A stretch of DNA of 43,482 bases from Candidatus Kaiserbacteria bacterium (GCA_043771035.1 JAYVHQ010000017.1:1-43482), one strand, 5' to 3'. Positions 16,401 to 26,180 are shown, numbered from the stretch's first letter. Numbers and translations: made by a program. The notes: generated from the letters alone by a model not told the origin.

Positions 16401-16504
16401 AAAAACTGGCAAATGTTCCATCAGACGCAATCACTGTCAAGGGAATTGAAATCGCTAATCTTAAACAGCAGATTGAAGAAGCGCTTCGTCAAATTGCCGC
16501 TTGA
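16277..16504 (+). CDS. Overlapping -1-frame ORF (75 aa). It may be the true C-terminus of the previous gene after a frameshift, or a coupled small gene.
   Basis: It overlaps the last 124 nt of 15828..16400. There is no SD, and a TGA sits immediately before its ATG. The peptide ...KISKLSRTKADLEKLANVPSDAITVKGIEIANLKQQIEEALRQIAA looks protein-like. It ends 20 nt before the strong terminator. Confidence 0.35.
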   Translation: MDHRPRLDADEWVMVCIPPKPFTRLDLILKISKLSRTKADLEKLANVPSDAITVKGIEIANLKQQIEEALRQIAA

Positions 16505-16523
16505 TAGAAGTAATTCAGTTACA

Positions 16524-16557
16524 GGAGCCCCAGCACAGGGGCTCCTTTCTTTTGTTT
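16524..16557 (+). terminator. Rho-independent terminator of the plus-strand unit.
   Basis: GGAGCCCC-AGCACA-GGGGCTCC forms a perfect 8-bp GC-rich stem (16524-16545), followed by TTTCTTTTGTTT. Confidence 0.8.
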
Positions 16558-16593
16558 ATGGGCTATATTGTACGAAGTTAACGACACTCTATA

Positions 16594-16624
16594 AGCTTCG
16601 CCTAGGACTCTCCTAGGCGAAGCT
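16594..16624. repeat. Perfect 14-bp-arm palindrome AGCTTCGCCTAGGA-CTC-TCCTAGGCGAAGCT (copy A of the AGCTTCGCCTAGG repeat).
   Basis: Read directly from the sequence. The arms are exact reverse complements and each contains CCTAGG. Confidence 0.9.
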
Positions 16625-16801
16625 AGAAACCTACCGTGTTTTTTGTATGCTATACATCAGCAGAAGATTTGAGGTACTCTATGAACTGAACGTGGATTGC
16701 CACGCCTGCGGGCTCGCAAAGACGCTGGGAGCTTCGGAAAATAATACTTTACTGCTTAAAGTAAGCCAGCTCCGCTTAAGACTGACCTATGTAAATCTGT
16801 T

Positions 16802-16851
16802 AAAACTTTAGAAAATTAGTTTCATAAGCTTCGCCTAGGACTCTCCTAGGC
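16802..16851. repeat. Solo left end of the E-element (AAAACTTTAGAAAATTAGT) fused to a truncated copy B of the palindrome (AGCTTCGCCTAGGACTCTCCTAGGC).
   Basis: Positions 16802-16820 match 16976-16994 at 18 of 19 positions. Positions 16827-16851 are identical to the first 25 nt of copy A. Confidence 0.8.
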
Positions 16852-16917
16852 AGAATGGGCAAAATATGAACGTTGTTAGTTTCGCTTATCAATCGACATT
16901 TACTTAAGGACAGAATT

Positions 16918-16961
16918 AGCTTCGCCTAGGACATTTAGCTTCGCCTAGGACTCTCCTAGGG
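16918..16961. repeat. Copies C1 and C2 of the AGCTTCGCCTAGGAC repeat, 19 bp apart.
   Basis: Positions 16918-16932 read AGCTTCGCCTAGGAC. Positions 16937-16961 read AGCTTCGCCTAGGACTCTCCTAGGG. Confidence 0.85.
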
Positions 16962-16974
16962 AGTAGGCAGACAT

Positions 16975-17099
16975 TAAAACTTTATAAAATTAGTGCAATT
17001 CGAGGCAGGCAAGGAAAATCTTGCGAGCCGTACTTATTGTACGGTGAGTAAGATTTTACCGCAGCCTAACGAAGAAGTGTGCAATTTTATAAAGTTTTA
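16975..17099 (+). repeat. E-element copy E1, a 125-bp unit with 17-bp perfect terminal inverted repeats and a conserved internal hairpin. It is either MITE-like or a structured RNA.
   Basis: The ends read TAAAACTTTATAAAATT ... AATTTTATAAAGTTTTA. The internal part reads GCAAGGAAAATCTTGCGAGCCGTAC-TTATT-GTACGGTGAGTAAGATTTTACCGCAGC. The right end supplies part of the TAA stop (17097-17099) of the dockerin gene. Confidence 0.75.
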
Positions 17100-18213: not shown

Positions 18214-19179
18214 TTAGCTAATCAGCGAATCATCCTTACGTCCTTGACGTCTGTAGTAAATGAAATACAAAACAGCGATTATAAAGGCAAATAATGGCAG
18301 TAACACCGAAATCTTATGCGGGATTGAAAGACCACCAAAACCGTACCCGGCAGTTTGTAGAGTGCCATACGCCAAGATACTGAGATTAAGTTCTCCTTCT
18401 TGTTTCACCTCATCATTATTAAAAATTGTATAACGTGCCATATAACTACCTGCTGGTAGTTTAGTTGGTAAGTACGCAGTAATTTCTTCGGTTGCATACG
18501 GTGCAATCTTTTTTAGCCTACCGCTATGTTTTGTCTCTTCGAGTAAAACTGCTCCCGTTCTATCATAAATTCTAAATTGAACTTTCGAAGGTGCGATATC
18601 TACGTTACCGGTATTTTCGAGCGACATCTTGAAATTGATTTTTCCAGGGAAAAATAACCAGCCGAGTTTATGTCCCGCATCAAGATCAAGAACATCAATT
18701 TTTCGCACTCTAAAATCCTCGATTACACGATCAATCACATTGAGATTAATATCAACTTGGGCTCCAAGAGAAATACTGACAACTCCTTCAGCTACCTGAT
18801 CATCGGTCGGTTGTGTCCTGATACGAATCTTTCCTTCATATTCACGGTACGCGGCATCAGCTGGAACTTTAACTCGTACAGTCATGGCGACTTTTTGTTC
18901 ACCACGCGGCATAAGTATAGTTGTCCCTTCAACAATTTCTATCCAGTCTTGAATTTCTGGAGCATCAACCATAATCTGAGCATTCAGTGGTGCGTTAGGG
19001 TCACCACGTACGAGCAGTATCTGCTGCTCGTACGTTGAGTTACGGGTAAGACTGGTATTACGAACATACGGTGGAGTGATACCAAAACTGGCGCTCGCAA
19101 CCAATGTGCCAAACGCAAAATAAAGTATGACAACGAGCGAGCTCAATTGAAATAATGATGTGCAGGTGAGTGACTTCAT
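18214..19179 (-). CDS. Surface-complex anchor-like protein, paralog 3. It has a signal peptide, two beta-sandwich-like domains, a C-terminal TM helix and a basic tail.
   Basis: The signal peptide is LSSLVVILYFAFGTLVASA/SFG. Domain 1 ends in ...AYREYEGKIRIRTQP. Domain 2 contains KMSLENTGNVDIAPSKVQFRIYD...LPAGSYMARYTIFN. The TM is ISVLLPLFAFIIAVLYFIYY followed by RRQGRKDD. The layout matches paralogs 1 and 2. Confidence 0.8.
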   Translation of the reverse strand: MKSLTCTSLFQLSSLVVILYFAFGTLVASASFGITPPYVRNTSLTRNSTYEQQILLVRGDPNAPLNAQIMVDAPEIQDWIEIVEGTTILMPRGEQKVAMTVRVKVPADAAYREYEGKIRIRTQPTDDQVAEGVVSISLGAQVDINLNVIDRVIEDFRVRKIDVLDLDAGHKLGWLFFPGKINFKMSLENTGNVDIAPSKVQFRIYDRTGAVLLEETKHSGRLKKIAPYATEEITAYLPTKLPAGSYMARYTIFNNDEVKQEGELNLSILAYGTLQTAGYGFGGLSIPHKISVLLPLFAFIIAVLYFIYYRRQGRKDDSLIS

Positions 19180-21167: not shown

Positions 21168-21267
21168 AATAATTTACCTATTCATTTTAGCTGATATTCA
21201 CCCGACTATACCCAAGTTATACACACACTTACTCACTCGTTATCAAAATAATTTATACTTAATTGAG

Positions 21268-21436
21268 CAAACTTTCAGAAATGAGTGCAGTGCTAGGAGC
21301 GCAAGGACATTTTCTGTAGGCGTACTGATTGTACGACGAAAGAAAATGTACCGCAGCGGCGGTCCAGCGATTTTCCTGAGGATGAAAAATCGGGACAGAA
21401 ATTCAGAATAGTCGCTATCGCTCGTTTCTTCATTCC
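21268..21436 (+). repeat. E-element copy E2 (~170 bp) in the permease/631-aa gene gap.
   Basis: The left end reads CAAACTTTCAGAAATGAGTGCAGTGCTAGGAGCGCAAGGA. The hairpin is ACATTTTCTGTAGGCGTAC-TGATT-GTACGACGAAAGAAAATGT. Next comes ACCGCAGCGGCGGTCCAGCGATTTTCCTGAGGATGAAAAATCGGGACAGAAATTC. The right end CGCTCGTTTCTTCATTCC pairs with GAAATGAGTG at the left end. Confidence 0.75.
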
Positions 21437-21467
21437 ACAACTAATGTGCGATTTATGGAAGTTTGAT

Positions 21468-22676
21468 TTATTCATAGCGAATGGCGTCGAGGGGATTCAA
21501 AGACGATGCACGGCGAGCGGGAAAAATTCCGGTCAAGTAACCCACAATGGCCGAGAAGACAATAATGAATGCGAGAAATCCAAGCGGAAATGCGAACAGT
21601 GTTACCGACTGACCTCCAAATTGACCGGCAACAAGATTGAGAAACAAATTTATAGTCATCCCTAATGTCACTCCCATCAACACACCAGTTAACCCTCCCA
21701 TAAAACCGACCACCACTGACTCAGATACGAAAAGATATTTCACATCGTTTGGTGACGCACCAATAGTACGCATAATTCCAATTTCTTTGGTTCGTTCGAG
21801 CAAGGTTACCGTCATCGTATTAAACATGCCGATAGCTGACACCAAAAGCGCAATACCCCCAAAAGTTGCTAACACCGCTTGTACCCCTTGGAAAATCTTT
21901 GAAGCTTGCTCGACAGTTTTAGACAAGGCGGTTACGCGGTACCCTTCTTCAATAAGCTGTTTTTCAATAATTGGTAAATTTTCATTACTGTCTACGCGAA
22001 CTTGGATACGTTCATATTCCTCGACACCAACATAATTACGCAGCTCAGGTAACATCATCATGGCATTGAGCACGCCTTCTTCTTTGGTAATACCACGGAC
22101 GGTATATTCTTTATCGATTACTACTTCAGTATTAGTATCTGAGCCATCCTCTGCTGGTATAAGCAATCTGAAACTTACCTTTTGCCCGATGAACGCCTTA
22201 GGATCTTCTATGCCGAACAATTTTAATACTGCCGGCGACAGCATCACCGAATTTACATCAGCAGCATCAGCGTCAGTAAAAACTACTCCTTCAGTAGCGG
22301 TTACTCCAGCATATCGCAAGTAAGGCGGCTCAACCCCTTGAATAAATACATTGCCCGTCAAACCTTTAAACGTAACCAGGGCAGGAAATTTAGCGAGCGG
22401 GGCAGCGTCGAGTACCTCAGGTTTTTTTTCAAAGGCGGCGACAGTTTCCGAAGTAAGTTTTAGGTTTTGGGCACCAGTAGCTGACACTCCGAGGGAAAGC
22501 AGGGTTTCGCCGAACACAATTTGCTCCAAAATAATCTGCTGCAGGCCAAAACCTAAACCCACAAGAATAACCACTGCCCCCGTCCCCACACCCATACCCA
22601 AAATCGTCAACCACGTTCGCAGTGGATTAGTCTTAAACATACGCGTCGAGAGCTGAGCGAGATCTTGAATTCTCAT
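21468..22676 (-). CDS. ABC transporter permease, FtsX/MacB family, with four TM helices and a large extracytoplasmic domain between TM1 and TM2.
   Basis: The N-terminus MRIQDLAQLSTRMFKTNPLRTWLTILGMGVGTGAVVILVGLGFG is typical of MacB/FtsX permeases. A soluble insert of ~215 aa follows. The C-terminal FtsX-type three-TM bundle ends ...GIFPARRASSLNPLDAIRYE, the family-typical tail. Confidence 0.85.
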   Translation of the reverse strand: MRIQDLAQLSTRMFKTNPLRTWLTILGMGVGTGAVVILVGLGFGLQQIILEQIVFGETLLSLGVSATGAQNLKLTSETVAAFEKKPEVLDAAPLAKFPALVTFKGLTGNVFIQGVEPPYLRYAGVTATEGVVFTDADAADVNSVMLSPAVLKLFGIEDPKAFIGQKVSFRLLIPAEDGSDTNTEVVIDKEYTVRGITKEEGVLNAMMMLPELRNYVGVEEYERIQVRVDSNENLPIIEKQLIEEGYRVTALSKTVEQASKIFQGVQAVLATFGGIALLVSAIGMFNTMTVTLLERTKEIGIMRTIGASPNDVKYLFVSESVVVGFMGGLTGVLMGVTLGMTINLFLNLVAGQFGGQSVTLFAFPLGFLAFIIVFSAIVGYLTGIFPARRASSLNPLDAIRYE

Positions 22677-22747
22677 TTGTTACATTATGACACGTACACA
22701 ACACGTAACTAAGGACAACTCACAGTTTAATTGAAAAGGTAAGTGAT

Positions 22748-22902
22748 ATTGAAAACGAGTGTAGTTGGTGGTGAGAGGAGTTACTAAATGTCACGCAACC
22801 TTGCGGACAGCGACTTGAGTCAGACACTCCGGTTGAGCTAGCTCACTCTTAGAGCGAACGTTCCATCGATTGGCTCTAGGAAAGAGCAAATCGGGAACAA
22901 AG
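22748..22902 (+). repeat. Degenerate E-element-like copy (E3) in the ATPase/permease spacer.
   Basis: ATTGAAAACGAGTGTAG (22748-22764) resembles the E left-end motif CAGAAACGAGTG. CTCTAGGAAAGAGCAAATCGGGAACAAAG (22874-22902) resembles CCTAGGGAAGAAAAAATCGGGACAGAAAT of E4b. The similarity is weaker than for the other copies. Confidence 0.35.
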
Positions 22903-22936
22903 CATAAACATACAACCTTGCGGTTGTTGTTATGCT
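22901..22936 (-). terminator. Hairpin with a GCAA tetraloop overlapping the ATPase stop codon. It may be an intra-operon attenuator or stabiliser.
   Basis: The minus strand reads AGCATAA-CA-ACAACC-GCAA-GGTTGT-ATGT-TTATGCT, followed by TTGTTCCCGATTTGC. That is two 6-bp helices with an internal loop. The U-tract is weak. Confidence 0.3.
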
Positions 22937-24252
22937 TTATAGCTGACGTCTACCCCTTGGGCAATCAACTTCTCAAAATACCTTGTCAGCTCATCGGCTT
23001 CACTTTCTGATAGTGCCAACCCCCGTTGTCTAATACCCGCCATGAGACGCGTATTAAACTCCAGTTCTTCTATCACACCGGTCACTCTATCAGCAATCAG
23101 CTCAACTAAATTCGTGTCTTGTTCTTTGGATAATTTAATCCTAAATATTTCCATTAAATGATCTTTGAGCCGCTCAGCCAACTTATGCTGACTAAAAAAT
23201 ATCCCGGGATTATCTTTTTTGGCCCGAAAGCGTCTAATATCATCTGATTGATGAATCATCAACTCAGATTTTTTTGCCATAGCCTTGGCAATTGCTTCTG
23301 GCATCTCTACCCCGCCCTGCTCACTCGGCAAGATTAGGGTTTTAATAAACGCGTCGTGATCTATTTTACCTTTAATAAAATGGCCGACCGCACGCTCTAG
23401 TTTATTAAGCTGATTAAAGGTGTAGTCTTGGGTCAGGTAATTAACCATACTTTTTACCCGTAGAGTATCTACTGAATCATACGGGAAAAGACGAGCCAGC
23501 TGTTCGAGCTCAGTCACGATTGTCTCCCCTTCTCGTACCGGTTTGATTTGTTTACGCTGCGGGTTTACTACTTCACGCACGATAAATCCATCTTTAAGAT
23601 AATACACCCGGTGCGCGTAACTCAGGTGCGCCGCATTGTGAGACACCATAATAATGGTTCGCCTATCAAAGGTATTGATCTCATCAATTTTGTCCATTAC
23701 CTGCTGTGTTGAAACCGAGTCGAGGTTACCTGTTGGTTCGTCTGCCAAAAGAATCTTAGGGTCATTTACCATTGATCTGGCTACTGACACACGTTGTTGC
23801 TGCCCTCCTGAGAGCATTGACGGGATTTTGTGCGACACGTGCCCTACTCCAAACCGATCAAGCAAAGACTGCGCCCGTCTGTCGCGGGTTGGTTTATCAA
23901 CGTCACAGAAAATTTGCGGTAGGGCGACGTTGTCGAGTACCGATAAAGAACCTATCAAGTTAAACGATTGAAAAATAATACCCATCACATACCGCTGAAA
24001 ATACACCCGCTCACTCGGTGGATAGGAGTAAATATCATCACCACGAATAAGGAGTGTCCCATCACCCGGTGGCAGTGAACCTTGGATAGAATACATCAGC
24101 GTTGATTTTCCTGACCCAGAGGCGCCGAAAAGAATAATGTACTCGCCTTCATAAATGTCAGTATTAACATTTTGCAGAGCTCGAAATTCGTTTTGTTTAC
24201 CTTTATTATAAATAATAGAAAGGTCTCGACAGGTGATAAAGGGCTTGGCCAT
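22930..24252 (-). CDS. ABC transporter ATP-binding protein (MacB/LolD/FtsE-like NBD) with an unusual ~210-aa helical C-terminal extension.
   Basis: Walker A is GASGSGKST. The Q-loop region is IFQSFNL. The signature is LSGGQQQRVSVARS. Walker B is ILLADEPTGNLD. The H-loop is MVSHN. After about residue 228 (22933..23571) a helical region with two similar halves has no NBD counterpart. Confidence 0.85.
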   Translation of the reverse strand: MAKPFITCRDLSIIYNKGKQNEFRALQNVNTDIYEGEYIILFGASGSGKSTLMYSIQGSLPPGDGTLLIRGDDIYSYPPSERVYFQRYVMGIIFQSFNLIGSLSVLDNVALPQIFCDVDKPTRDRRAQSLLDRFGVGHVSHKIPSMLSGGQQQRVSVARSMVNDPKILLADEPTGNLDSVSTQQVMDKIDEINTFDRRTIIMVSHNAAHLSYAHRVYYLKDGFIVREVVNPQRKQIKPVREGETIVTELEQLARLFPYDSVDTLRVKSMVNYLTQDYTFNQLNKLERAVGHFIKGKIDHDAFIKTLILPSEQGGVEMPEAIAKAMAKKSELMIHQSDDIRRFRAKKDNPGIFFSQHKLAERLKDHLMEIFRIKLSKEQDTNLVELIADRVTGVIEELEFNTRLMAGIRQRGLALSESEADELTRYFEKLIAQGVDVSYKA

Positions 24253-24360
24253 ATTTTTATATTATCGCACGCACGGCAACTGTTCTATCATGCAACCCCC
24301 AGTTTTAAGATATCAATACAAATTATTAAAATAAATAATTCAAAAGTGATCAAAGAGCTA

Positions 24361-24470
24361 AGACTTTCAGAAACGAGTGAAATTCGAGGCACGCAAGGAA
24401 ATTATTGTGAGCCGTACCCATCGTACGGTGAGCAATGATGACACGCTACGGCGCTTACGTGATTTAACTC
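24361..24470 (+). repeat. E-element copy E4a.
   Basis: AGACTTTCAGAAACGAGTGAAATTCGAGGCACGCAAGGAAATTATTGTGAGCCGTAC-CCATC-GTACGGTGAGCAATGATGA is nearly identical to E1 in the block ATTCGAGGCA(G/C)GCAAGGAAA and in GAGCCGTAC...GTACGGTGAG. Confidence 0.7.
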
Positions 24471-24486
24471 AAGTGAGTTAGTCATC

Positions 24487-24724
24487 TAAGACCTCAAAAA
24501 TTGAGTGCAGTGCTAGGAGTGAGAAAGCAAACTGCTTTGCTTTCGTAAGACTCATTGAGAGATTTTGCAAAAATACCCAATGAGTGGACAGCTTCTGTAA
24601 GAAGCAAGGAAATTACCGCAGCGGTCCAGCGATTTTTCCTAGGGAAGAAAAAATCGGGACAGAAATTCATCATCTTGAAAAGCAATCCCATTGCTTTTCA
24701 ACTACGCTCGTTTCTTCATTCACC
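24487..24724 (+). repeat. E-element copy E4b. The central hairpin is replaced by other perfect hairpins.
   Basis: It shares TGAGTGCAGTGCTAGGAG (18/18) with E2. It also shares GGTCCAGCGATTTT(T)CCT..GGA.GAAAAA(A)TCGGGACAGAAATTCA and the right end CGCTCGTTTCTTCATTC with E2. The core is collapsed to GCAAGGAAATTACCGCAGC. Extra hairpins are GAAAGCAAA-CTGC-TTTGCTTTC, ACTCATTG...CAATGAGT and GAAAAGCAAT-CCC-ATTGCTTTTC. Confidence 0.7.
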
Positions 24725-24737
24725 AATTTTGGTGGTC

Positions 24738-26180
24738 TTATTTACCGATGTTCTTCAACCAACCGAATGTACTCTGGAAGTTTTCCAAAATCAAATCGAT
24801 AATATTCTTTTCCTGAATTGGAGTGAACAGTACGAAGTTCTCTGACTGAATAGTGTTCTTGGCTTCGTCAGTACAATTGAGCCAAAATTGGTAGACAGTG
24901 GCGGGGGCGAAGTCAACAATTACCTCTACGTGGGTAGTTGAATACTGGACGTTTTCTTGTTCAATCGTGATGGGTTCTACGCCGCCGGCCACCCCTTCAC
25001 GATAGGTCATAAGACAACTGGCTGATTCATCAGTGTTCCACTCGACAATCGTCTGAATCCGGGATTCTCCACCGGGGAAAATAGTTGATTCGTTGGTCAC
25101 GTTTGTAATAATCGGCGGCGCGATATCACGGACGGTAATAAATTGAATTGGCTGGCTACGGACGCGATCTCCACCCGAGTTTTCTGCAATCACAAACGCC
25201 ACGTAGCGCGTACCCAGCGTCAGGTCCGCTAAGCGCATTTGGTGCGTTGTAGCTAAGGTCGGGCGACCAACTGAGTTTTGCACACCGGTGGTTAAGTCTT
25301 GAAATTCAATCAGGGCTTTGGCTGGCACAGTAGTATCCCACGCTAAAGTCGCGGCGTTTTCTTCTACTTTTACAATCCGCAGGTTACGTATATCGGGTAA
25401 AGATGCTTTGGTTCTAAAGGTGTAGTTGCGACTTTCACCGGTGATGCTGTACGTATCTTTAGACAGAACTTTAAAGGTATACTCCGTAAATGGCTCAAGT
25501 CCAATTAATCTAATTTCATGATCACTTGATGGCTCACCAGTTGATGACTGAGAAAATTCGTAGGTACCGTCAAAGCCCTGAGTTTTAGAAAATTGCACTT
25601 CTGAAGTAGCAGGTCTGTCGGTTACCCACTTCACCAGTGCAGTGTTTGTTTCTGGGATCACTGTTGGTGGCCCAACAATCGCTAAGACTTGGGAGATACC
25701 TTTGATGACCTTGATGGTTTCATCAATAATCTCTTGTAGTTTCGGGATACTGGTGATCTGCTTTATTTGTTCGATTATTTCTTTGGTTGGCTCAGAATCA
25801 CTCTTCCCCTCCCCGATAGCCGGTGTACCATCTGTTTGGATTTTGTAGTCAGCTGAAATGCCCTGGTTTCCTTCGAGGTCAGCTGATACGACACGGAAAT
25901 AGTAGGTTCGGCCGGGTTCGAGATTATTTAAGGTGACTGAGTGAGTGGTTCTGTCAGCTACTGGTACACGCACAATACCGTAGTCAGCTTGCAGGCCGTA
26001 GTTTACCGCCGAGTCAGCTTTTTCACTCGTTTCCCAGGTGAGCGTCACACTCTCCTTGGTCGTAGTACCAATTTTTACATTACTAATCTCCGGCGCTTTT
26101 GTGTCATTTGATTGAGCAATAACTGTCTGACTACTAAGAAGAGCCAGACACACCACTACAAATAAGAAGTACCCGCGCAT
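24738..26180 (-). CDS. Secreted protein with four FN3-like (purple-acid-phosphatase-N-like) domains and a helical linker.
   Basis: The signal peptide is MRGYFLFVVVCLALLSSQTVIA/QS. Repeats include VTLTWETSEKADSAVNYG...HSVTLNNLEPGRTYYFRVVS, ALVKWVTDRPATSEVQF...LEPFTEYTFKVLS, ATLAWDTTVPAKALIEF...LTLGTRYVAFVIA and a fourth copy. The gene starts 26 nt after the giant ORF stop. Confidence 0.8.
   Translation of the reverse strand: MRGYFLFVVVCLALLSSQTVIAQSNDTKAPEISNVKIGTTTKESVTLTWETSEKADSAVNYGLQADYGIVRVPVADRTTHSVTLNNLEPGRTYYFRVVSADLEGNQGISADYKIQTDGTPAIGEGKSDSEPTKEIIEQIKQITSIPKLQEIIDETIKVIKGISQVLAIVGPPTVIPETNTALVKWVTDRPATSEVQFSKTQGFDGTYEFSQSSTGEPSSDHEIRLIGLEPFTEYTFKVLSKDTYSITGESRNYTFRTKASLPDIRNLRIVKVEENAATLAWDTTVPAKALIEFQDLTTGVQNSVGRPTLATTHQMRLADLTLGTRYVAFVIAENSGGDRVRSQPIQFITVRDIAPPIITNVTNESTIFPGGESRIQTIVEWNTDESASCLMTYREGVAGGVEPITIEQENVQYSTTHVEVIVDFAPATVYQFWLNCTDEAKNTIQSENFVLFTPIQEKNIIDLILENFQSTFGWLKNIGK

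Follow-up and report, generated by a model that had tools for sequence, protein, structure and literature searches.

A MacB-type ABC pair in Patescibacteria associated with fn3-repeat proteins that share a conserved C-terminal tail, and a tandem helical extension of its ATPase

The locus considered here lies within a 43,482-nucleotide stretch of DNA from a Candidatus Kaiserbacteria bacterium (GCA_043771035.1 JAYVHQ010000017.1:1-43482), which in its full length is referred to as the window. On the minus strand, a gene encoding an fn3 protein (24738..26180) is followed by the genes of an ATP-binding cassette (ABC) ATPase (22930..24252) and of a MacB/LolC-type permease (21468..22676). The fn3 protein comprises 480 amino acids, with an N-terminal signal peptide and fn3/Pur_ac_phosph_N repeats that are recognised by Pfam. 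The ATPase is 440 amino acids long. Its residues 1-227 (23572..24252) form a canonical nucleotide-binding domain (NBD) of the MacB/LolD/FtsE type according to PF00005, NCBIfam and Foldseek, followed by a linker at residues 228-246 (VNPQRKQIKPVREGETIVTE, 23515..23571) and by two helical repeats, delimited by hhalign and AlphaFold2, at residues 247-345 (23218..23514) and 346-440 (22933..23217). The permease, of 402 amino acids, was delineated by PF12704, PF02687 and a hydropathy scan.

A preliminary description of this DNA had recognised a MacB/FtsX-type pair with canonical NBD motifs and a large extracytoplasmic domain in the permease, and all three assignments were confirmed. Residues 26-174 of the ATPase match PF00005 (E 9.7e-32), and Walker A (GASGSGKST), the signature (LSGGQQQR), Walker B (ILLADEPTG) and the H-switch can be read directly from the sequence. 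In an AlphaFold2 model of the ATPase (mean pLDDT 80, with low confidence at residues 240-246), the NBD superposes on that of Escherichia coli MacB (5lj9) with a TM-score of 0.94-0.95, a root-mean-square deviation of 1.4 Å and 37% identity (Foldseek). In the permease, MacB_PCD (PF12704) covers residues 21-241 (E 1.3e-18) and FtsX (PF02687) residues 271-395 (E 1.2e-16). The hydropathy scan revealed four hydrophobic spans, one at 21-46 and three between 264 and 388. This gives a first transmembrane (TM) segment at ~21-46, an extracytoplasmic domain at ~47-262 and TM segments 2-4 at ~264-388. As judged from the MacB-type NBD fold, the MacB_PCD and FtsX domains and the four hydrophobic spans, the pair is a type VII (MacB-superfamily) ABC system. 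In type VII machines, such as MacB, LolCDE and FtsEX, an ATP-driven movement is relayed to the outer domain and no substrate is pumped through the membrane. By analogy with this family, the pair would be expected to act by mechanotransmission rather than by transport across the membrane.

The best curated models for the ATPase were DarD, LolD, MacB and FtsE, all scoring well under their naming cut-offs in NCBIfam. The pair shares the NBD fold and the MacB_PCD and FtsX domains with MacB, LolCDE and YbbAP-TesA, the last two of which act on exported lipoproteins or a partner enzyme. However, it differs from each of them, and neither MacAB-TolC nor LolCDE is a tenable identity. The MacB equivalog reaches 167 bits against a cut-off of 966, and no gene for an HlyD-family adaptor or an outer-membrane factor was found among the open reading frames (ORFs) of the window or in the gene tables of related loci. 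LolD scores 173 against 308 bits and lolCE 92 against 362, and each locus holds a single permease gene instead of a LolC/LolE pair. The organism is also presumably monoderm. The permease lies directly downstream of the ATPase in all loci examined. Its identity across 80 species is 82% (79% in the extracytoplasmic domain), and in the ATPase (n = 78 species of the window's clade) identity is 91% in the NBD, 97% in the linker and 67-68% in the repeats (67% in the first). The linker is thus as conserved as any 20-residue block of the ATPase. In hundreds of metagenomic copies from the same clade, the ATPase is exactly 440 amino acids long.

The fn3 protein encoded upstream of the pair ends in a conserved tail (residues 446-480, ...FVLFTPIQEKNIIDLILENFQSTFGWLKNIGK, 24741..24845, minus strand), identified by its conservation and by a motif shared with other proteins. 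The hydrophobic N-terminus of the window protein lies at residues 3-24 (hydropathy scan). Over its full length the protein aligns with the C-terminal ~455 amino acids of fn3 proteins of 1.8-2.4k amino acids from distant clades (E 1e-34 to 1e-78). The common ending of these proteins, about 35 residues long, reads ...(F/Y)TxLTPxxxExxhxxhhxNFExxFGWhK... Among 70 species of the window's clade the tail is nearly invariant, with 88% identity compared with 71% for the whole fn3 protein. The window's own genome contains one copy of the motif, and NCBIfam holds no model for the tail. Modelled as a helix, the tail is amphipathic, with a hydrophobic moment of 0.42-0.56 that is reached by 0.6-3% of shuffled sequences, and it is too polar for a TM segment. 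In the hydropathy scan, the fn3 tail proteins show a signal peptide or signal anchor at the N-terminus but no TM segment at the C-terminus, and the tail should therefore lie outside the cell. We propose the fn3 protein as the extracytoplasmic partner of the ABC pair.

Some fn3 proteins of ~2,000 amino acids (L027:2490-2700, L108:2829-3250, L110:3709-4180) start with a basic segment of about 60 residues (..KLVREKKLKAIKKGNKWYTTEKW..), followed by a single TM segment. The basic segment looks like an excisionase-type helix-turn-helix and would form a cytoplasmic head.

Gene order around the pair was compared at three levels of relatedness. In the window's clade the order is a giant DUF2341 ORF, the fn3 protein, the ATPase, the permease, and then six more surface-protein genes, p631, p321, p371, p383, p353 and p583. 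It is kept in about 70 of 80 species-level loci, essentially all those with enough flanking sequence. In a clade whose ATPase is ~36% identical, a fn3/Kelch protein of 1.8-2.4k amino acids abuts the ATPase gene in 6/6 loci (at 1-430 nt, or overlapping); in these six loci the ATPase and permease genes are tightly coupled, and conservation extends to no other gene. In 12 independent genomes the permease follows the ATPase without exception (12/12), and a fn3 tail protein of 2.0-2.9k amino acids lies upstream of the ATPase in eight, downstream of the permease in one and elsewhere in three, two of these being weak. A complete genome (G198:C1:378837-388737) shows the permuted order ATPase, permease, 2,447-residue tail protein. 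The link of the pair to surface-protein loci, which the preliminary description had put forward, is borne out at all three levels and extends further than supposed there. Its suggestion of a role in handling the neighbouring surface proteins needs to be narrowed, since the specific partner appears to be the fn3 protein with its conserved C-terminal tail and not the neighbours generally.

Giant DUF2341 proteins of Patescibacteria have been noted before (PMC11809585). In the p321 protein (18214-19179, minus strand) a signal peptide is combined with a TM helix at the C-terminus, a layout like that of the chaperones PamC and PamD (PMC13278184). The Pam system is a chaperone-usher-like pilus with membrane-anchored chaperones in the candidate phyla radiation, and its description mentions no ABC component (PMC13278184).

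The association was also found in a phylum-wide sample of 401 genomes, searched with a 39-position tail profile and, for the permease family, a threshold of E <= 1e-30. The tail was detected in 74 genomes, mostly at the end of ORFs of 1,000-3,400 amino acids and in up to five copies per genome, and the permease family in 95. Both were present in 70 genomes, the tail only in 4, the permease family only in 25 and neither in 302. The resulting odds ratio of 211, like its p-value, overstates the association, since genomes that are related do not count as independent observations. A tail is encoded within 5 kb upstream of a permease, on the same strand, in 50 of the 70 genomes that have the two, and the usual order is tail protein, ATPase, permease. 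The distances between tail and permease fall into three groups, of ~750-900 nt, ~1300-1600 nt and ~1700-2300 nt; the first fits an ATPase consisting of an NBD only, the second an ATPase with the C-terminal extension. In genomes lacking the extension, an NBD-only pair follows the tail at 4 of 18 inspected loci; the remaining 14 hold additional tail paralogues that have no ABC pair in their vicinity. The link between tail proteins and MacB-type ABC pairs is general in the phylum.

Genomes with three to five tail ORFs, of 1,700-3,100 amino acids, are exemplified by G202:C1:182421-200927, G037:C1:226535-234965, G150:C3:63248-71864 and G219:C65:4931-15689. Several of these ORFs stand in tandem, and those checked in G202, G037 and G150 have no adjoining ABC pair.

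The C-terminal part of the ATPase beyond the NBD had been described as two similar halves that could be assigned to no family, and the present analysis supports both statements. A profile-profile comparison (hhalign) of residues 250-345 with 346-440 gave a probability of 99.4% and an E value of 4.3e-21 over 81 columns, and in the AlphaFold2 model each half consists of four helices with a Gly-rich loop (GGVGL-type) ahead of the last one. By profile and predicted fold, the two halves are a true internal duplication. Helices are predicted in the region of the first repeat at 248-255, 261-273, 279-293, 299-307 and 319-346, and the consensus of the two consecutive units of ~90 amino acids reads RLExxIxxRLxGxI...F...L..P...GGxGL...A...E. 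Modelled alone, the extension reached a pLDDT of 80 and a pTM of 0.53. No Pfam or NCBIfam family was matched by residues 228-440, alone or as a set of 22 diverse homologues, apart from scattered sub-threshold matches, and searches of the PDB by sequence and profile returned nothing below E 0.17. At the level of fold, Foldseek found no significant match in the PDB or BFVD (best E 1.3 and 0.25, TM-score about 0.2), and with the whole ATPase model it retrieved NBDs only, no solved ABC ATPase spanning the extension. The cyclin/TFIIB and PRD domains among the Foldseek matches were not significant and were not used. Reading the GGxGL loop as a helix-hairpin-helix was discarded, as the spacing does not fit and no model of that motif matched.

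The preliminary description had allowed that the extension might turn out to be a regulatory domain common on ABC ATPases. This is not the case: among 1.84 billion representatives of clusters at 50% identity, it was found in only 83 clusters, nearly all of them ABC ATPases of ~420-455 amino acids, or fragments of such, with the domain in the same position. Three members of the ATPase family (P0172, P0184, P0202) are longer, at 703-775 amino acids, with a low-complexity P/T/Q/K-rich tail of ~270-340 residues after both repeats. In the phylum sample the extension profile matched 34/401 genomes, of which about 13 hold full-length ATPase extensions. The extension is therefore an accessory, confined to a minority of lineages that are spread over several families. 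The association of the pair with surface proteins does not depend on the extension: most permease-tail pairs of the sample are spaced for an NBD-only ATPase. One further locus (G374:C15:3634-6039) has a tail, then an ATPase frame that matches one repeat only (profile positions 55-124) and contains an in-frame TAA, and then the permease; the locus may represent an intermediate with a single repeat, or a copy in decay.

Most of the other extension-profile matches that were checked belong to a separate family of proteins of 480-650 amino acids without TM segments. Both repeats of this family align in register with those of the ATPase (hhalign, 96.9%, E 1.8e-10, 158 columns). Its genes (L020:1968-3539 on the minus strand, L021:2117-3679, L022:2280-3851, L023:1754-3487, L024:1475-3424 and L025:1563-3014 on the minus strand) lie directly upstream of a PrgI/VirB3-like gene in 6/6 loci, and longer flanks show a VirB4/TraG-type ATPase two genes further on. 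This is the type IV secretion system (T4SS) locus of Patescibacteria described in PMC12102498, which cites a report that the locus is essential for the epibiotic growth of the single strain examined by genetics. The T4SS-locus proteins have the same tandem helical repeat as the ATPase and no TM segment. In contrast to the ATPase, they have no ABC domain, carry their own conserved N-terminal domain, a low-complexity linker and a conserved C-terminal domain (...AWRxSPxxxxYxxL...LNxxIQF), and occur in the context of a T4SS, not of fn3 tail proteins. Because the tandem repeat is found in this family too, the extension is a cytoplasmic module that is portable and serves in two envelope machines.

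Taken together, these observations suggest a mechanism in which the outer domain, or the outer-leaflet cavity, of the permease would bind the exported fn3 protein by its tail. Through the ATPase cycle, the pair would then hold, position or release the fn3 protein together with the cohesin/dockerin-linked fibre assembly encoded around that protein, much as FtsEX acts on EnvC/PcsB or LolCDE on lipoproteins. In this way the pair would load, release or remodel surface proteins. The extension would serve as a regulator or adaptor that ties ATPase activity to a cytoplasmic partner common to the secretion system; because most related pairs do without it, it would stand outside the core mechanism. The parts of this proposal are not equally secure. 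A functional link between the pair and the tail protein is very likely, and an accessory role of the extension, regulatory or as an adaptor, is probable. Direct contact between tail and permease, suggested by gene order and co-occurrence, is possible, with the balance tilting just against it. For the whole package, a type VII mechanotransducer acting on a tail-tagged protein with the extension as cytoplasmic regulator or adaptor, we see the chances as evenly divided.

Several points weigh against the proposal. Binding of the tail by the permease is deduced from gene order and co-occurrence, and the predicted structures are those of single chains. The co-occurrence statistic itself is inflated by kinship among the sampled genomes, tail and permease are not adjacent in 20 of the 70 genomes with both, and 25 genomes have the permease family but no detectable tail. 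Fourteen of the 18 checked tail loci lie away from any ABC pair; since many tail proteins are so placed, the tail could be read by something else. For the C-terminal domain there is no significant fold match that would hint at what it binds, and the orientation of the repeats and the NBD relative to one another is uncertain (pTM 0.53-0.55). Finally, the promoter and terminator readings given below are matches to a consensus.

The same counts, that is, the 14 tail loci of multi-copy genomes without an adjoining pair and the genomes with a permease but no tail, favour an indirect link. Under such a link, the pair would extract or expel a small molecule or a lipid, such as a glycolipid, a precursor of a wall polymer, a peptide or a toxic compound, and the fn3 proteins would need or bind the product or merely share the operon, while the tail would be read by a component other than the permease. 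Many MacB-type systems do handle small or lipid substrates, among them MacAB, HrtBA, DevCA and BceAB. However, the minimal unit in distant clades consists of the fn3 tail protein, the ATPase and the permease, with no biosynthetic or adaptor gene retained. In addition, no part of the fn3 protein is more constrained than the tail, and the permease is present in 70 of the 74 tail-positive genomes. We therefore regard an indirect link as unlikely, and favour the tail protein as the client of the pair.

With respect to the extension, a self-contained domain would be the alternative to an adaptor: a dimerising clamp or trans-inhibition domain as in MalK, MetN and ModC, which would keep the two NBDs together and sense a small molecule of the cytoplasm in place of a protein partner. 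C-terminal regulatory domains are a known theme in ABC ATPases, the linker at 228-246 is 97% conserved, and the extension is dispensable in most related pairs, as expected for a regulator. Like the additional domains of MalK, MetN and ModC and the carbohydrate-binding domain of Wzt, the extension follows the NBD, is not required for the core fold and probably has a regulatory or substrate-selecting role. Those domains are beta-rich, however, whereas the extension of the window ATPase is all-helical, consists of two tandem repeats of four helices with a Gly-rich loop, and shows no recognisable relationship to any of them; neither the 22 diverse extensions nor a comparison with the PDB revealed a match in sequence, profile or fold to TOBE, NIL or CBS-type regulatory domains, and the fold is unlike TOBE/ACT-type domains. 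Moreover, the tandem repeat also occurs in the soluble, non-ABC protein of the T4SS loci, for which a portable interaction module is the better fit. A self-contained clamp or sensor is accordingly quite unlikely, and a module that contacts a cytoplasmic partner is preferred.

A role of the tail as a secretion or quality-control signal, recognised in the cytoplasm by the ATPase, perhaps through the extension, with the pair driving or gating export of the fn3 end, would resemble type I secretion systems (T1SS). In favour of this reading, the tail stands at the C-terminus and looks uncleaved, an ABC pair is encoded immediately downstream of it, an arrangement also seen in T1SS operons, and the extension is cytoplasmic. 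Against this, the fn3 proteins bear signals or anchors of the Sec type at the N-terminus, a transmembrane channel is lacking in MacB-type permeases, both NBD and permease match MacB/LolC/FtsX and not the T1SS exporter fold, and the extension is absent from most tail-linked pairs. Cytoplasmic recognition of this kind is thus very unlikely, and a tail read outside the cell remains the preferred interpretation.

The ATPase and permease genes of the window are separated by a lineage-specific spacer of 253 nt (22677..22929, minus strand), characterised by folding, a terminator scan and its repeat copies. The structured spacer reported in the preliminary description is indeed present: its fold has a free energy of -68.9 kcal/mol (z -3.25), which none of 200 shuffled sequences matched. 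Directly after the ATPase stop codon, the terminator scan found a terminator-like hairpin with a GCAA loop and a T-rich tail (22912..22927, minus strand). A -10-like box, TGT-CATAAT (22684..22692, minus strand), can be read 7 nt before the permease ATG. The 485-nt gap between the fn3 and ATPase genes (24253..24737, minus strand) contains a similar box, TGn-GATAAT (24261..24269, minus strand), 8 nt before the ATPase ATG. This gap consists largely of dispersed intergenic repeats, with blastn copies on many contigs and a repeat family designated D2. The gaps at 24253-24737, 22677-22929, 21168-21467 and 16401-17096 are all patchworks of short repeats, copies of which, 85-100% identical over 20-105 nt, are present on more than 20 further contigs of the 829-kb genome. 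In particular, nt 2-78 of the spacer, its 5' third, has a 90%-identical copy in an intergenic region of contig C26 and a further copy in C20 of the same genome. A search of the whole window against Rfam returned no family, and the spacer is therefore not a described riboswitch or leader.

If the spacer were a conserved attenuator setting the ratio of ATPase to permease, its stable fold and the hairpin after the ATPase stop would be readily explained. Across the 80 species, however, the gap is at most 10 nt in 34, has a median of ~29 nt and reaches at least 115 nt in 28. Long gaps arose repeatedly and are mutually unrelated in sequence, save for the last ~60 nt, which are kept among close relatives, and the 5' part of the window spacer is a dispersed repeat of other intergenic regions. 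Homology with the 422-nt spacer of locus L001 was considered and rejected, since only 11 nt beside the start codon match. A conserved attenuator is hence a very improbable explanation, and the spacer is not, as had been supposed, a trait that uncouples the pair; tight stop-start coupling of ATPase and permease is the common and probably the ancestral state. In the window lineage, insertion of dispersed repeats may have brought the terminator-like hairpin into the spacer as a local event, and the promoter-like box after the hairpin would then give a leaderless permease mRNA. A -10-like box lies near the permease ATG in most species with a gap of at least 24 nt (45 nt upstream scanned, L028-L107), and boxes of the forms TGnCATAAT, TGnGATAAT and TATACT sit 7-12 nt ahead of start codons. 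No Shine-Dalgarno sequence is visible in any of the 80 species. These patterns suggest that leaderless mRNAs or stop-start coupling are the rule in this lineage. In a single species, the ATPase and permease genes are separated by an insertion of 4.2 kb (L102:7450-11695).

That the pair is the organism's FtsEX, controlling a division cell-wall hydrolase and placed in the surface island by chance, is almost certainly wrong: FtsE is among the best NCBIfam matches and the window's own genome has a single FtsX-type permease match, a count explained by the 77% completeness of the assembly, but the scores lie far under the cut-offs (FtsE 164 against 265 bits, FtsX models 31-41 against 225-255), the outer domain of the 402-residue permease is of MacB_PCD size, three relatives with more complete genomes encode 3-5 ORFs with an FtsX domain, among them, in addition to the ABC pair, one with the canonical FtsX length of ~310 amino acids, which argues against the pair as the sole FtsX-type system, and no hydrolase gene is conserved beside the pair among the window ORFs and the 80-species loci.

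As a functional model, FtsEX with its partners EnvC, PcsB or CwlO is nevertheless instructive. Both systems combine a separate NBD with a four-TM permease of the FtsX fold, for which no substrate path across the membrane is expected, and in both an exported partner is co-encoded or co-conserved, with a helical element as the likely target of mechanotransmission. They differ in that the window pair has the larger MacB_PCD outer domain, and in that the proposed partner here, a fibre protein of fn3 repeats ending in the tail, is no coiled-coil activator of a hydrolase. Relatives also keep a separate FtsX-sized gene. FtsE also lacks the helical C-terminal domain of ~195 amino acids borne by the window ATPase. 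The tail, for its part, is comparable with the sorting elements of the LPXTG/sortase and PEP-CTERM/exosortase systems and with the C-terminal domain of type IX secretion substrates, in that a short C-terminal element occurs on many large surface proteins and a membrane machine is encoded beside some of them. Unlike those elements, the fn3 tail has no TM helix, basic anchor or sortase-like partner, and the co-occurring machine is an ABC pair. A tentative extension of our proposal would make the tail a new C-terminal sorting or anchoring tag of giant Patescibacteria surface proteins and the MacB-type pair its dedicated handler, a counterpart of Lol in a monoderm, with the tandem-repeat module coupling the pair to the T4SS in some lineages, so that the display of fibres and secretion into the host would be coordinated; we consider this doubtful in its full form. 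A literature search, which did not cover all journals, brought up no account of either the extension or the tail, nor of a pairing of these with a MacB-type ABC system. The family itself is known; what is new for a type VII ABC system is the proposed type of client, a tail-bearing fn3 protein, and the accessory domain.

Patescibacteria are ultra-small, make up a large share of bacterial diversity and live attached to other microbes, and giant surface proteins are their presumed contact organs. The tail together with a MacB-type ABC motor is a concrete candidate for the way in which such proteins are placed and held on a cell without an outer membrane. The two-repeat domain merits a family definition of its own, as it ties an ABC motor by homology to a T4SS-locus protein. 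If the proposed mechanism is true, the mechanotransmission ABC family would gain a client of a new kind, namely a fibre protein that is held by the tail. Our results thus suggest that the ABC pair and the tail proteins form a dedicated machine for handling host-contact fibres.

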